From NCBI RefSeq assembly GCF_003334315.1, contig NZ_QOWR01000051.1: 33,719 nt of DNA, one strand, 5' to 3'. The position numbers and the translations under genes were made by a program. The DNA is from Escherichia coli. Lineage in GTDB: Bacteria; Pseudomonadota; Gammaproteobacteria; Enterobacterales; Enterobacteriaceae. Below the pieces are notes generated by a model. It saw only the letters and a program-made list of their open reading frames with translations, ran no database searches and was not told the origin of the DNA. Shown one piece after another: positions 1 through 33,719 of the stretch (position 1 is its first letter; every line of letters starts with the position of its first letter).

Positions 1-81
1 AAGTCGCTGTCGTTCTCAAAATCGGTGGAGCTGCATGACAAAGTCATCGGGCATTATCTGAACATAAAACACTATCAATAA
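1..81 (+). CDS. insB: IS1 transposase InsB, C-terminal fragment (5' part outside window)
   Basis: In-frame translation ends ...[15 protein letters not shown] with TAA at 79-81; identical to the C-terminus of the 33282-33659 minus-strand ORF at the other edge. Confidence 0.85.
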   Translation, partial: KSLSFSKSVELHDKVIGHYLNIKHYQ

Positions 82-97
82 GTTGGAGTCATTACCC
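1..97 (+). mobile_element. IS1 insertion sequence, partial (insB-proximal end; continues left of the window)
   Basis: Bases 1-81 translate in frame 1 to [26 protein letters not shown], the C-terminus of IS1 InsB; 75-97 (atcaataagttggagtcattacc) is the IS1 terminal inverted repeat as I recall it. Recognised from memory, not searched. Confidence 0.9.
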
Positions 98-177
98 ATT
101 TTCTTGTCTCTCCGACAGACTGACCGAATTGTTATCAATGTTAACAAAAAAAGAACAATTGGTTATAAGGAGAGAGT

Positions 178-753
178 ATGCGTGTCATCACCCTGGCGGG
201 TAGTCCTCGCTTTCCTTCTCGCTCCAGCTCCTTGCTGGAATATGCGCGGGAAAAACTAAATGGCCTGGATGTAGAGGTTTATCACTGGAATCTGCAAAAC
301 TTCGCCCCGGAAGATCTGCTTTATGCTCGTTTCGATAGTCCGGCACTCAAGACCTTCACCGAACAGCTGCAACAGGCTGATGGACTGATAGTCGCTACAC
401 CTGTGTATAAAGCCGCCTATTCCGGCGCGCTGAAAACCCTGCTCGACCTGCTGCCAGAGCGCGCTTTGCAAGGCAAAGTGGTGCTACCGCTGGCGACGGG
501 CGGTACCGTGGCCCATCTGCTGGCGGTCGATTATGCCCTTAAACCAGTTTTAAGCGCACTGAAAGCTCAGGAGATCCTGCACGGCGTGTTTGCCGATGAC
601 TCACAAGTAATTGATTACCATCACAGACCCCAGTTCACGCCAAATCTGCAAACCCGTCTTGATACCGCGCTAGAAACTTTCTGGCAGGCATTGCACCGCC
701 GCGATGTTCAGGTTCCTGACCTTCTGTCTCTGCGAGGTAATGCCCATGCGTAA
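178..753 (+). CDS. ssuE: NADPH-dependent FMN reductase (sulfonate-sulfur utilisation)
   Basis: 191-aa ORF with RBS aaggagag upstream; product and length match E. coli SsuE; first gene of the ssuEADCB order. Confidence 0.93.
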   Translation: MRVITLAGSPRFPSRSSSLLEYAREKLNGLDVEVYHWNLQNFAPEDLLYARFDSPALKTFTEQLQQADGLIVATPVYKAAYSGALKTLLDLLPERALQGKVVLPLATGGTVAHLLAVDYALKPVLSALKAQEILHGVFADDSQVIDYHHRPQFTPNLQTRLDTALETFWQALHRRDVQVPDLLSLRGNAHA

Positions 754-1705
754 CATCATTAAACTGGCGCTGGTGGGATTGCTTAGCGTCTCTACGATTG
801 CGGTTGCTGCAGAATCCTCGCCTGAAGCGTTACGTATAGGCTATCAGAAAGGCAGTATTGGTATGGTACTGGCAAAAAGCCACCAGTTACTGGAAAAACG
901 CTATCCGCAATCAAAAATCTCCTGGGTGGAGTTCCCCGCGGGTCCGCAAATGTTGGAAGCGTTAAACGTTGGCAGTATTGATCTCGGCAGTACCGGGGAT
1001 ATTCCGCCAATCTTTGCCCAGGCTGCCGGGGCTGATTTGGTATATGTGGGCGTCGAGCCACCGAAGCCCAAAGCCGAAGTGATTCTGGTGGCAGAAAACA
1101 GCCCGATCAAAACCGTAGCCGATCTTAAAGGTCACAAAGTTGCCTTTCAGAAAGGTTCCAGTTCACACAACCTTTTACTGCGTGCACTGCGTCAGGCCGG
1201 ACTTAAGTTTACCGATATCCAACCCACTTACCTGACGCCCGCTGATGCCCGCGCCGCGTTCCAGCAAGGTAACGTTGACGCCTGGGCTATCTGGGATCCC
1301 TACTACTCTGCTGCATTATTACAGGGCGGCGTGCGGGTGCTGAAAGACGGCACCGATCTCAATCAAACTGGATCGTTTTATCTGGCAGCTCGTCCCTATG
1401 CAGAAAAAAACGGCGCTTTTATTCAGGGCGTACTGGCAACCTTTAGTGAGGCCGATGCGTTAACCCGCAGCCAGCGCGAGCAAAGCATCGCTTTACTGGC
1501 AAAAACGATGGGCTTACCGGCACCGGTGATTGCCTCTTACTTAGATCATCGCCCTCCTACCACCATCAAACCGGTTAACGCCGAGGTTGCCGTCTTACAG
1601 CAGCAAACGGCAGATCTGTTTTATGAAAATCGTCTGGTGCCGAAAAAAGTCGATATTCGCCAGCGCATCTGGCAGCCCACTCAACTGGAAGGAAAACAAT
1701 TATGA
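746..1705 (+). CDS. ssuA: Aliphatic sulfonate ABC transporter periplasmic binding protein
   Basis: ORF track starts at 704, but the signal-peptide start [21 protein letters not shown] begins at the ATG at 746, giving 319 aa; overlaps the ssuE stop by 8 bp. Confidence 0.9.
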
Positions 1706-2847
1706 GTCTGAATATGTTCTGGTTTTTACCGACCCACGGTGACGAGCATTATCTGGGAACGGAAGAAGGTTCACGCCCGGTTGATCACGGTTATCTGCAA
1801 CAAATTGCGCAAGCGGCGGATCGTCTTGGCTATACCGGTGTGCTAATTCCAACGGGGCGCTCCTGCGAAGATGCGTGGCTGGTTGCCGCATCGATGATCC
1901 CGGTGACGCAGCGGCTGAAGTTTCTTGTCGCCCTGCGTCCCAGCGTAACCTCACCTACCGTTGCCGCCCGCCAGGCCGCCACGCTTGACCGTCTCTCAAA
2001 TGGACGTGCGTTGTTTAACCTGGTCACAGGCAGCGATCCACAAGAGCTGGCAGGCGACGGAGTGTTCCTTGATCATAGCGAGCGCTACGAAGCCTCGGCG
2101 GAATTTACCCAGGTCTGGCGGCGTTTATTGCAGAGAGAAACCGTCGATTTCAACGGTAAACATATTCATGTGCGCGGAGCAAAACTGCTCTTCCCGGCGA
2201 TTCAACAGCCGTATCCGCCACTTTACTTTGGCGGATCGTCAGATGTCGCCCAGGAGCTGGCGGCAGAACAGGTTGATCTCTACCTCACCTGGGGCGAACC
2301 GCCGGAACTGGTTAAAGAGAAAATCGAACAAGTGCGGGCGAAAGCTGCCGCGCATGGACGCAAAATTCGTTTCGGTATTCGTCTGCATGTGATTGTTCGT
2401 GAAACTAACGACGAAGCGTGGCAGGCCGCCGAGCGGTTAATCTCGCATCTTGATGATGAAACTATCGCCAAAGCACAGGCCGCATTCGCCCGGACGGATT
2501 CCGTAGGGCAACAGCGAATGGCGGCGTTACATAACGGCAAGCGCGACAATCTGGAGATCAGCCCCAATTTATGGGCAGGCGTTGGCTTAGTGCGCGGCGG
2601 TGCCGGGACGGCGCTGGTGGGCGATGGTCCTACGGTCGCTGCGCGAATCAACGAATATGCCGCGCTTGGCATCGACAGTTTTGTGCTTTCGGGCTATCCG
2701 CATCTGGAAGAAGCGTATCGGGTTGGCGAGTTGCTGTTCCCGCTTCTGGATGTCGCCATCCCGGAAATTCCCCAGCCGCAGCCGCTGAATTCGCAAGGCG
2801 AAGCGGTGGCGAATGATTTTATCCCCCGTAAAGTCGCGCAAAGCTAA
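1702..2847 (+). CDS. ssuD: FMNH2-dependent alkanesulfonate monooxygenase
   Basis: 381-aa ORF, luciferase-like monooxygenase sequence matching SsuD; ATGA overlap with the ssuA stop. Confidence 0.93.
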
Positions 2848-2857
2848 GGAAGAAATA

Positions 2858-3649
2858 ATGGCAACGCCAGTGAAGAAGTGGTTATTGCGCGTTGCCCCCT
2901 GGTTTTTACCGGTGGGCATCGTGGCGGTGTGGCAACTGGCCTCCTCGGTTGGCTGGCTGTCGACGCGTATTTTGCCTTCACCGGAAGGAGTGGTGACGGC
3001 GTTCTGGACGCTCTCCGCCAGCGGCGAACTGTGGCAGCATCTGGCGATCAGCTCCTGGCGGGCGCTGATTGGCTTTTCAATTGGCGGATCGCTGGGGTTG
3101 ATTTTGGGACTGATTAGCGGGCTATCTCGCTGGGGAGAACGGCTGCTGGATACCTCAATTCAGATGTTGCGCAACGTGCCGCATCTGGCGCTGATCCCGC
3201 TGGTGATTTTGTGGTTTGGCATTGATGAATCCGCAAAAATCTTTCTGGTGGCGCTCGGTACGCTATTCCCCATTTATATCAACACCTGGCATGGCATCCG
3301 TAATATCGATCGCGGGTTGGTGGAGATGGCGCGTAGCTATGGATTATCCGGCATACCGCTGTTTATCCATGTGATCCTGCCTGGTGCCCTGCCCTCAATT
3401 ATGGTCGGCGTGCGTTTTGCGTTGGGCCTGATGTGGCTGACGCTGATTGTTGCCGAAACCATTTCTGCCAATTCAGGCATTGGTTATCTGGCGATGAATG
3501 CGCGGGAGTTTTTGCAAACGGACGTGGTGGTAGTCGCTATTATTCTTTACGCCCTGCTCGGCAAACTGGCTGACGTCAGCGCGCAGCTGTTAGAGCGCCT
3601 CTGGTTGCGCTGGAACCCGGCTTATCATTTGAAGGAGGCCACGGTATGA
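2858..3649 (+). CDS. ssuC: Aliphatic sulfonate ABC transporter permease
   Basis: ORF track starts at 2813; the ATG at 2858 preceded by aaggaag gives 263 aa starting [10 protein letters not shown], a hydrophobic multi-helix permease. Confidence 0.9.
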
Positions 3650-4413
3650 ATACTGCTCGTCTGAACCAGGGCACGCCATTGTTGCTCAATGCAGTAAGCA
3701 AACATTACGCGGAAAATATCGTCCTGAACCAACTGGATTTACATATTCCGGCAGGTCAGTTTGTGGCGGTGGTGGGCCGCAGCGGTGGTGGCAAAAGTAC
3801 CCTGCTGCGCCTGCTGGCAGGTCTGGAAACGCCAACCGCAGGCGATGTGTTAGCGGGCACCACACCGCTGGCTGAAATTCAGGAAGACACGCGAATGATG
3901 TTTCAGGATGCGCGTCTGCTACCGTGGAAATCGGTGATTGATAACGTTGGGTTAGGCCTTAAAGGCCAGTGGCGCGATGCCGCACGTCGAGCGTTGGCTG
4001 CGGTAGGACTGGAGAATCGCGCAGGGGAATGGCCTGCCGCACTTTCTGGCGGGCAGAAACAGCGAGTGGCGCTGGCAAGAGCGTTGATTCATCGACCGGG
4101 ATTATTGTTGCTTGATGAACCGCTCGGGGCGCTGGACGCCTTAACGCGACTCGAGATGCAGGATTTGATTGTGTCACTTTGGCAGGAGCACGGCTTTACC
4201 GTACTGTTGGTGACGCATGATGTGAGCGAAGCGGTAGCGATGGCTGACCGGGTGCTGTTAATTGAAGAGGGAAAAATTGGTCTGGATTTGACAGTGGATA
4301 TCCCCCGTCCGCGTCGATTAGGGTCGGTGCGATTAGCGGAGCTGGAAGCGGAGGTGTTGCAACGGGTGATGCAACGTGGTGAATCTGAAACTCGCCTGAG
4401 AAAACAGGGGTAA
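3646..4413 (+). CDS. ssuB: Aliphatic sulfonate ABC transporter ATP-binding protein
   Basis: 255 aa with Walker [13 protein letters not shown] signature LSGGQKQR and Walker B LLLDEP; ATGA overlap with ssuC. Confidence 0.93.
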
Positions 4414-31104: not shown

Positions 31105-33266
31105 CTACCCGTTATCCACTGGCACGCCAAACCACTGATGATACCAACGAGGTAAAATTTGCTCCCTGAGGCTGCTAATCCGCCAGCCTTGCGCTGAAAA
31201 ATTGACCGTTGTTTGACCTTGATGTGGAGTATCAATCCATTGATATCCTTGCAGTTGATAGCGATGCTTAACTTTGTTAGAGGGCAGTCGCCATGCGTTA
31301 TAGCGCGATGCCGATGCGAGTGCCACTTTTCCATTCACTCGCTGAATTAATGGCAACGATGATGAGGTATTACTGCCATGGTGAGGTACCTGAAGCAATG
31401 TTGCCTGCACTTGCTGCCAGTAACGGCTTAGCATCTTTTGTTCAGCTGGGGCTTCAATATCACCGGTTAGAAGAATGCTATTCGTCCCGTCATCAACCTT
31501 AACCACACAGGAATGGTTATTTCCTTTATCGTTGCTACCTTGTAAAGGCCAGTGCGCGCTGAAACGCAATCCTTGCCATTGCCACGCTTCGCCACGCACA
31601 CAGGGCTGATGATGTTCCCAGTTTAACGGACTTCTGATCCATAACATCGGCCATATATGCAATATTGAATCCAGCCCTCCCCGGTGATCCAGATGTTCAT
31701 GGCTCAGAATAACGCCTTCCGGTTCAAGATTATGCCAGTGGAGCCAGGGGATAATCAGTTGTTGCCCACTATCCCCTTCAGGCCAGGCCAGTCCTGTGTC
31801 ATAGAGAATCGCTTTGCCGTTTCTGGCTATCACCATTGCCAGCCCTTGCCCGACATCAAGCATGTACAGCTGCCACTCGTCAGGTCGAGGTTTTTGCCAC
31901 AGCGGCCAGCACATCAGCAAGCCTCCAGCCACACACATTGCTGGCAACGTTCGCCAGGCGTTTAATCGCCATACCACCAGTAAGAACCATGGGGAAAATG
32001 ATAGCCATTGCCAACATTCAGCAATGTTGATCCACCCTTCCGGCAAACTCTTTAACCCCCAGAAAAGTAAAGCCAAAGACCGGTCGGCAAGAAACCATAA
32101 CCCTTGCTCCAGGATTAACGGCCCGCTTAAATGCACAACCATCGCGGCGAGGATCAACGGAACCGTGATAAATGTCACCAAGGGAATTGCTAATAGATTT
32201 GCAATAAACGAGGTCAGACTAATGCCATGAAATATGACGATTTGCACGGGCATAAGCAGAAGTGTGATTCCCAGTTGCAGATGGATGAGGGAAACAACTG
32301 CACGCAATACCGGCGGCAGTTGCCACTCAGGACAGGGAAACCACTGATACCAAAATATCAATGCCGCGACCGCAGCGGCAGAGAGCCATAAACTTTGCGA
32401 GAGAATGGCAACAGGATCCATCAGCAAAATTGCCGCCAGACAACATATCCATACATCCCAGCCACTCCACTGTCGCCCACTTAACTTAAGCATTCCCCAC
32501 GTAGCAAGCGCCACCATGGTACGCAATGCAGGAGGTTGCATTCCCGTCAACCAGGCATAAAAAGCAGCACAGCAGATTCCGCCAATTAATGGTATTTGCC
32601 AGTGGATCCAGCGCCCAGGCAGAAAAATTTGTCCACTGCGAATGAGTCCGGCAGCCAGCAACGCCGCAAAAGCGATGTGCAATCCCGATATCGCCATTAA
32701 ATGCGCCGTTCCAGTATCGCGCATGATATTTTTGATTTCTTTGGGGACGGATAACCGTTCCCCCATACCTAAACCAAGAATAACCGCATTCCACGGATAG
32801 GGTTGCAGCGTTGTTTGTAGTGACGCCAGATACTGTGCACGCAGGCTACAATTCGGTTCAATGACACTTGCCTGCAGAAAACGGCCGGTGAGCGGCTGAT
32901 GCTGGGCAATGGCATAACGCTGGCTATCAAAGCCGCCATCATTAAGTTGGCCATGAACTGCACGAACTTTGAGTTTCATTGACCATTGTTGTCCAGCACA
33001 AACCGCTTGCGGAAGATATTCGCCATACATCACGAGACCTGACGCAGGGAATATACGTCGACCTTGTAGATGAGTAATTTGACCGTAATGAGTGGTCATG
33101 CCGTCAGTTGCAGTGATCTCAACAATTGCATCCTGCGTCGCGCCAGTTAAGGTTTCTCCTGCCCACAAAATTTGCTTTGCTGATAATATGCCCCAAACGA
33201 AAAACAGCAACGTCAGCGCGATATAACGGACGGTTTTAACAGGGATAAATGCCAGTACGCAGGCGA
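31105..33266 (-). pseudogene. ycaI: ComEC/Rec2-family inner-membrane protein YcaI, 5'-truncated by IS1
   Basis: The 701-aa ORF begins at a TTG at 33210, but the frame stays open upstream through 33266 (...LACVLAFIPVKTVRYIALT-LLFFVWGILS...) and runs into the IS1 inverted repeat at 33267 with no start codon. K-12 YcaI is about 754 aa, so roughly 30-35 N-terminal codons are missing. Confidence 0.8.
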
Positions 33267-33719
33267 GGTAATGACTCCAACTTATTGATAGTGTTTTATG
33301 TTCAGATAATGCCCGATGACTTTGTCATGCAGCTCCACCGATTTTGAGAACGACAGCGACTTCCGTCCCAGCCGTGCCAGGTGCTGCCTCAGATTCAGGT
33401 TATGCCGCTCAATTCGCTGCGTATATCGCTTGCTGATTACGTGCAGCTTTCCCTTCAGGCGGGATTCATACAGCGGCCAGCCATCCGTCATCCATATCAC
33501 CACGTCAAAGGGTGACAGCAGGCTCATAAGACGCCCCAGCGTCGCCATAGTGCGTTCACCGAATACGTGCGCAACAACCGTCTTCCGGAGACTGTCATAC
33601 GCGTAAAACAGCCAGCGCTGGCGCGATTTAGCCCCGACATAGCCCCACTGTTCGTCCATTTCCGCGCAGACGATGACGTCACTGCCCGGCTGTATGCGCG
33701 AGGTTACCGACTGCGGCCT
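33267..33719 (-). mobile_element. IS1 insertion sequence, partial (insB-proximal end; continues right of the window)
   Basis: Terminal inverted repeat ggtaatgactccaacttattgat at 33267-33289, followed by the InsB reading frame on the minus strand; inverted relative to the left-edge copy. Confidence 0.92.
33282..33719 (-). CDS. insB: IS1 transposase InsB (N-terminus and insA outside window)
   Basis: Minus-strand frame reads ...[31 protein letters not shown]...[21 protein letters not shown], open to the window edge; the ORF track reports only the part after the internal Met (33282-33659). Confidence 0.9.

Follow-up and report, generated by a model that had tools for sequence, protein, structure and literature searches.

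The analysed window is a stretch of 33,719 nucleotides of Escherichia coli DNA that starts within an IS1 element and continues into the ssuEADCB operon. The 3' end of the element occupies positions 1-96 on the plus strand and comprises the C-terminal codons of insB and the right inverted repeat. These positions correspond to nt 673-768 of complete 768-bp IS1 copies, with 0 mismatches in four reference genomes. The insB stop codon (TAA) lies at 79-81 and the 23-bp right inverted repeat at 74-96, terminating ...GGAGTCATTACC at 96. The presence in the window of both the terminal inverted repeat and the insB 3' end identifies the element as IS1. Its insAB genes are oriented toward ssuE, in the same direction as that gene. 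Relatives with the same junction carry complete annotated IS1 copies there; of the copy in the window, the part from IS1 nt 673 onward is present. The C at position 97 belongs to the native DNA, as PI12, which is free of IS1 at this site, reads tttggCattttctt / TTTGGCATTTTCTT. The position is polymorphic, with C here and in PI12, CUVM53 and CNR85I8, and A in K-12 and the ETEC O25 group. The first-pass annotation had ended the inverted repeat at 97 and left 80 bp of native DNA before ssuE. The repeat in fact ends at 96 and 81 nt are native, whilst the annotated ssuE start at 178 stands. At least 13 complete E. coli genomes contain the identical junction in one unbroken match, indicating that it is neither an assembly quirk nor a chance resemblance.

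The 81 nt of retained native upstream DNA (97-177, plus strand) hold the predicted core promoter, the leader and a Shine-Dalgarno sequence, AAGGAG, at 167-172. Their counterpart in K-12 lies at coordinates 997,513-997,593. An alignment of 98-177 to the K-12 ssuE upstream region, which the first-pass annotation had proposed, gave unbroken identity. The ssuEADCB operon itself (178-4413, plus strand) is intact and without internal stops. The ATG of ssuE (178-753) at 178 aligns with the annotated K-12 start, and open reading frames on the same strand follow for ssuA (746-1705), ssuD (1702-2847), ssuC (2858-3649) and ssuB (3646-4413). Relative to K-12, SsuA carries four amino-acid differences and SsuD two, with none in SsuE, SsuC or SsuB. 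Van der Ploeg et al. reportedly showed in 1999 that the K-12 ssuEADCB promoter is activated by Cbl and also binds CysB and IHF. Gene order, core promoter and leader of this Cbl-activated promoter are all intact in the window.

At its other end the window is closed by a second IS1 copy (33267-33719, minus strand), which interrupts ycaI, a gene of the ComEC family. Its right inverted repeat faces inward, the copy is cut by the window end and collinearity with K-12 stops at 33266. The window is thus a 33.2-kb ssuE-to-ycaI segment between two inverted IS1 copies with their right ends inward, and this segment could invert via IS1-IS1 recombination. The ycaI::IS1 junction is common to about 60 complete genomes, including PI12 and HS30-1, and marks the IS1-rich lineage to which the genome of the window belongs; CUVM53 lacks this marker. 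Among the complete genomes examined, none combines the ssuE junction with that at ycaI.

We placed the ssuE promoter and its start site by a hexamer scan, so that both are predictions rather than positions set by primer-extension data. The preferred predicted core promoter lies at 120-147 on the plus strand, with a -35 hexamer CTGACC at 120-125, a 16-nt spacer, an extended -10 TG at 139-140 and TAACAA at 142-147. This CTGACC-16-TGtTAACAA arrangement predicts a start near 153-154 and puts the junction at about -57. In the alternative prediction, on the same strand, CCGACA (112-117) and TGtTATCAA (130-138) are separated by a 15-nt spacer; transcription would then start near 145 and the junction would lie at about -48. 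With either candidate, only 15-22 bp of native DNA are left upstream of the predicted -35 hexamer. A stricter consensus scan for sigma-70 promoters found no match within window positions 1-400, suggesting a promoter that is weak alone, which fits activator dependence. Within the retained DNA the sigma-70 hexamers are matched best by TTAACA-17-TATAAG at 141-169 (10/12), which overlaps the Shine-Dalgarno sequence; transcription from it would start 1-2 nt before the ATG. In the same region GTTATAAGGAG is nearly invariant in 43 Enterobacteriaceae, a conservation beyond the need of a Shine-Dalgarno sequence alone.

The junction recurs in other E. coli. The IS1 target is the 8-bp sequence CATTTTCT, which lies at 97-104 (no strand assigned) and is duplicated on both sides of IS1 in simple-insertion relatives. 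In CNR85I8 and CUVM53 a 768-bp IS1 is flanked by this 8-bp duplication, and the remaining upstream DNA is shifted 776 bp away. The IS1 copies of these two strains differ at six positions and their ssu backbones are clearly different. GF66.1 carries an inverted IS1, also with the CATTTTCT duplication; the window holds the right flank only. The left flank of such a simple insertion at the ssuE site would read ...TTTGGCATTTTCT. An inverted IS1 sits at the same junction in PSJ-36, and an O121 strain has an inverted copy whose junction is shifted upstream by one base and which borders a fragment of the elf usher gene at its other end. The O19:H7 strain 730V1 and the ETEC O25 group (ATCC 43886 and relatives) have the same right junction as the window with a left flank inside elf genes. 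In these genomes a deletion has taken out the DNA in between, together with the more distal part of the ssuE upstream region, and fragments of elfC or another elf gene lie beyond IS1. The IS1 copies of the ETEC O25 group adjoin the A allele of base 97. Among complete genomes the junction was found at least 13 times in the forward orientation, six times inverted and twice offset by one base. With the window included, IS1 occupies the CATTTTCT target, in one orientation or the other, in at least seven lineage contexts, a number that estimates independent events without a phylogeny.

These two orientations bear on an outcome raised in the first-pass annotation, IS1-dependent expression of ssuE. 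Read-out from insAB, or a promoter at the IS1 end, would then give low, constitutive and Cbl-independent expression of ssuEADCB. The insAB genes do point toward ssuE, and no terminator-like structure lies between the insB stop and the ssuE ATG, so that weak read-through is possible. Hybrid promoters formed by IS1 ends are also said to be known, from work of Prentki et al. in 1986. The IS1 promoter is, however, weak and auto-repressed, and the element is strongly polar. At this junction no -35/-10 hexamer pair scoring at least 8 uses bases before 112, and the consensus scan found none; all candidates are native and start at or beyond 112, rather than spanning or adjoining the junction. The inverted copies in GF66.1, PSJ-36 and the O121 strain occupy the same target with no orientation bias, which argues against selection for read-out. 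We therefore find little support for IS1-dependent expression and consider it very unlikely that IS1 drives the operon.

A further question is whether DNA beyond IS1 was displaced or lost. The junction may mark where an IS1-mediated adjacent deletion, or recombination between two IS1 copies, came to an end, in which case the elf genes and the upstream ssu DNA would be absent rather than displaced. The closest backbones (PI12, HS30-1 and others with ycaI::IS1) have an IS1 of the same orientation within elf, either in elfC or at another position, and 730V1 and the ETEC O25 group show the exact junction with elf fragments beyond IS1. Against this, the window begins inside IS1, so that the left flank falls outside it, and CNR85I8 and CUVM53 show that simple insertion with target duplication also happens here. 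We give such a deletion a substantial chance, somewhat below even. It is a variant of the explanation we prefer, insertion of IS1 into the promoter region, and not a competitor to it; the consequence for ssu would be the same or stronger.

On a wider scale, an IS1 right end lies at most about 500 bp from the junction sequence in 91 of 5426 genomes, and in about 22 more a left end faces ssuE. IS1 is present within about 500 bp upstream of ssuE in about 2% of complete E. coli genomes. In other strains the ssuE ATG is preceded, at distances of 125, 132, 225, about 322 and 410 nt, by the ends of same-orientation IS1 copies whose left flanks lie within elf genes, among them elfA and the usher gene. 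These five copies look like insertions together with nested IS1-mediated deletions that erode the elf operon toward ssuE. The AT-rich ssuE upstream spacer is a real IS1 hotspot, the same bond having been used by differing IS1 variants in different backbones, with different flanks and in both orientations. Published listings class the spacer among the 'promoter islands' (PMC3661553) and among the SELEX sites of RpoD (PMC3946193). A link between IHF and the hotspot was considered and is unsupported: there is no IHF consensus at the target, and the spacer has a single perfect WATCAANNNNTTR match, some 100 bp away, 179-191 nt before the ATG. A literature search for IS1 together with ssuE found no relevant paper. 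The hotspot at ssuE is previously undescribed, whereas the class of mutation, an IS element in a promoter, is ordinary.

Conservation of the ssuE upstream region was assessed by a phylogenetic footprint, an alignment of the upstream regions of 43 Enterobacteriaceae obtained from a genome scan, in which positions are given at K-12-aligned columns as nt before the ATG. Two conserved non-coding blocks lie furthest upstream, block A (TTATGCnnTTTTnnGCA, 125-106 nt) and block B (ATAAATCATTTAG, 98-85 nt). Block C (CTCTGnCAC, 70-57 nt) is near the -35 region and is common to other genera. Block D (AATTGTTATCAATGTTA, 51-35 nt) and, downstream of it, block E, which is the leader with the Shine-Dalgarno sequence, are likewise conserved across the 43 Enterobacteriaceae. 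The position equivalent to the IS1 junction falls between blocks B and C, and C, D and E are retained in the window. The footprint shows blocks A and B as marks of putative regulator positions in the ancestral pyrD-ssuE arrangement, upstream of the junction-equivalent position.

Blocks A and B were then rejected as a locator of the Cbl site in K-12-type genomes. Of 5414 E. coli genomes, 1465 match the K-12 spacer only from 62-68 nt before the ATG onward. In PMV-1 and SCU-101, the two of these 1465 that were examined, pyrD is directly divergent from ssuE and the elf operon is absent. This ancestral arrangement accounts for about 27% of genomes, and the K-12 type for about 73% of complete genomes. 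In the K-12 type an elfADCG-ycbUVF island stands between pyrD and ssuE. Comparison of both ends between K-12 and PMV-1 showed that the island replaced 72 bp of the ancestral spacer, the part with blocks A and B. The upstream DNA of the K-12 type is thus elf island and not homologous to these blocks, which cannot be mapped onto the Cbl site of this window. On the side of ssuE, the island has its boundary about 72 nt ahead of the ATG, close to positions 106-108 and about 10 bp from IS1. The DNA common to K-12-type and ancestral-type E. coli starts at this boundary, and all of it is retained here. On the pyrD side, the island begins directly after GCAAACGTTTTC, which is retained in K-12-type genomes and which resembles the PurR operator of pyrD. 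Cbl/CysB control would have had to be kept or rebuilt when the upstream DNA was replaced in the K-12 type.

The position of the Cbl site can be approached through its expected size. In 1999 van der Ploeg et al. reportedly found that full ssu expression requires a Cbl-binding site upstream of the -35 region; at tauA, Cbl is said to protect 45 bp (van der Ploeg, 1997). Footprints of LysR-type transcriptional regulators (LTTRs) mostly cover 40-50 bp. A footprint of about 45 bp exceeds the 15-22 bp left upstream of the -35 hexamer, and the predicted Cbl site at ssuE is thus most likely split or displaced by IS1. The first-pass annotation had suggested that the activator site may be partly or wholly replaced by IS1. 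The short stretch left upstream of the -35 hexamer fits that suggestion, although a retained dyad at 105-117 means that a minimal site inside the 81 bp is possible.

Sequence motifs were examined as markers of the site. The K-12-type upstream region contains a dyad, AAAATT-N9-AATTTT (6+6 nt, T-N11-A), whose centre falls about 61 bp ahead of the predicted start; the insertion point of IS1 lies between its spacer and its right arm. A distance of about 61 bp before the start is the canonical position of an LTTR recognition site. Such dyads are common in the AT-rich spacer, and this one is not statistically unusual there (P about 0.23); it was set aside as a Cbl-site marker and serves as a lead only. 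Base 97 is both the first base of the IS1 target and part of the right arm of this dyad, and IS1 has used both of its alleles. An apparent motif common to tauA and ssuE, CTTTCnTTAG, was dismissed as chance. When the tauA Cbl-footprint region was compared with the DNA upstream of K-12 ssuE, the best ungapped matches did not exceed those of shuffled sequences (P 0.4-0.8).

Within the retained DNA, the sole LTTR-box-like element is the T-N11-A dyad TGTC-TCTCC-GACA at 105-117 (no strand assigned), which was read from the sequence and is a candidate only. It lies just upstream of or overlapping the -35 region, and it straddles the boundary between elf-island and ancestral DNA. This TGTC-N5-GACA dyad is one reason to ask whether the insertion is neutral for regulation. 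Cbl might contact the retained 81 nt near or overlapping the -35 region, and the operon would still be induced, perhaps less strongly. In line with this, the upstream DNA common to K-12-type and ancestral-type E. coli, and the part near the -35 region common to other genera (block C), all lie downstream of the junction, and IS1 is tolerated at the site in many lineages and in both orientations. A review also states that Cbl activates PssuEADCB from one site only, where it may act as a dimer. However, a dyad with four-base arms is expected by chance, and a mutational hotspot, together with weak selection on ssu, would account equally well for the recurrence of IS1. The 15-22 bp remaining upstream of the -35 hexamer are also hard to reconcile with the reported site position and LTTR footprint size given above. 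A neutral insertion thus appears unlikely.

We favour instead a loss of activation. In this explanation IS1 would have landed on the recurrent CATTTTCT target in the upstream half of the ssuEADCB promoter region, about 48-57 bp before the predicted start, or an IS1-mediated deletion ending at the same point would have produced the same junction. The core promoter, the leader and the five genes are left untouched. The DNA upstream of about -57, where the LysR-type activator Cbl would have to sit to recruit RNA polymerase, is now IS1, and the native upstream DNA would be 776 bp further off or gone. Since the promoter appears intrinsically weak and activator-dependent, the operon would most likely not be inducible by sulfate starvation. 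The strain would then be expected to use aliphatic sulfonates other than taurine poorly as a sulfur source. On this sequence evidence, we consider it probable that IS1 at ssuE causes loss or strong reduction of Cbl-dependent induction in an otherwise intact operon.

Compared with the wild-type K-12 ssuEADCB promoter, the window has the same core promoter, leader, Shine-Dalgarno sequence and five genes, but all DNA upstream of about -57 is IS1 and base 97 is C rather than A. Compared with the ancestral pyrD-ssuE spacer, as found in PMV-1, Citrobacter, Enterobacter and Klebsiella, the core blocks C, D and E are the same. The ancestral spacer carries blocks A and B as well, whereas the window is K-12-type DNA in which IS1 has taken the place of a further stretch. 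IS1 or IS5 in the bgl regulatory region and IS elements upstream of flhDC offer a parallel, as there too an IS element in an AT-rich, H-NS-type spacer alters the upstream DNA. Those insertions activate silent operons by breaking silencing, whilst here loss of an activator site is expected and activation is unsupported. Zerbib et al. (in 1985) and Gamas et al. (in 1987) are said to have described IS1 hotspots and adjacent deletions, the latter reportedly with an IHF site at the pBR322 hotspot. The ssuE locus is similar in its repeated AT-rich target, used in both orientations with an 8-bp duplication, and in its nested deletions into the elf operon. It differs from the pBR322 hotspot in having no IHF consensus at the target.

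The recurrence at one target also invites an adaptive reading. CATTTTCT would be a structure-directed IS1 hotspot, and its repeated occupation, often with elf loss, might result from selection, in commensal and livestock lineages rich in IS1, for silencing of Cbl-dependent ssu expression, the elf fimbriae or both, instead of being neutral. IS1 would then be a second remodelling of the ssuE upstream region after the elf island. A possible hint that loss of Cbl-regulon expression can be advantageous comes from another study (PMC11794783). We regard this selective account as distinctly improbable.

The finding leaves general principles unchanged. It does show that the upstream half of the K-12 ssu promoter, the textbook case, is not ancestral, a point of importance when models of the Cbl/CysB site are moved between E. 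coli phylogroups. The locus is also a natural series for the study of IS1 target choice, with one 8-bp site used in both orientations in several lineages and accompanied by nested deletions. If loss of Cbl-dependent induction is the true outcome, strains with this junction would be unable to induce alkanesulfonate uptake and desulfonation under sulfur limitation. The junction would then be a natural regulatory knockout of ssuEADCB in at least 19 complete E. coli genomes, the ETEC O25 group included.
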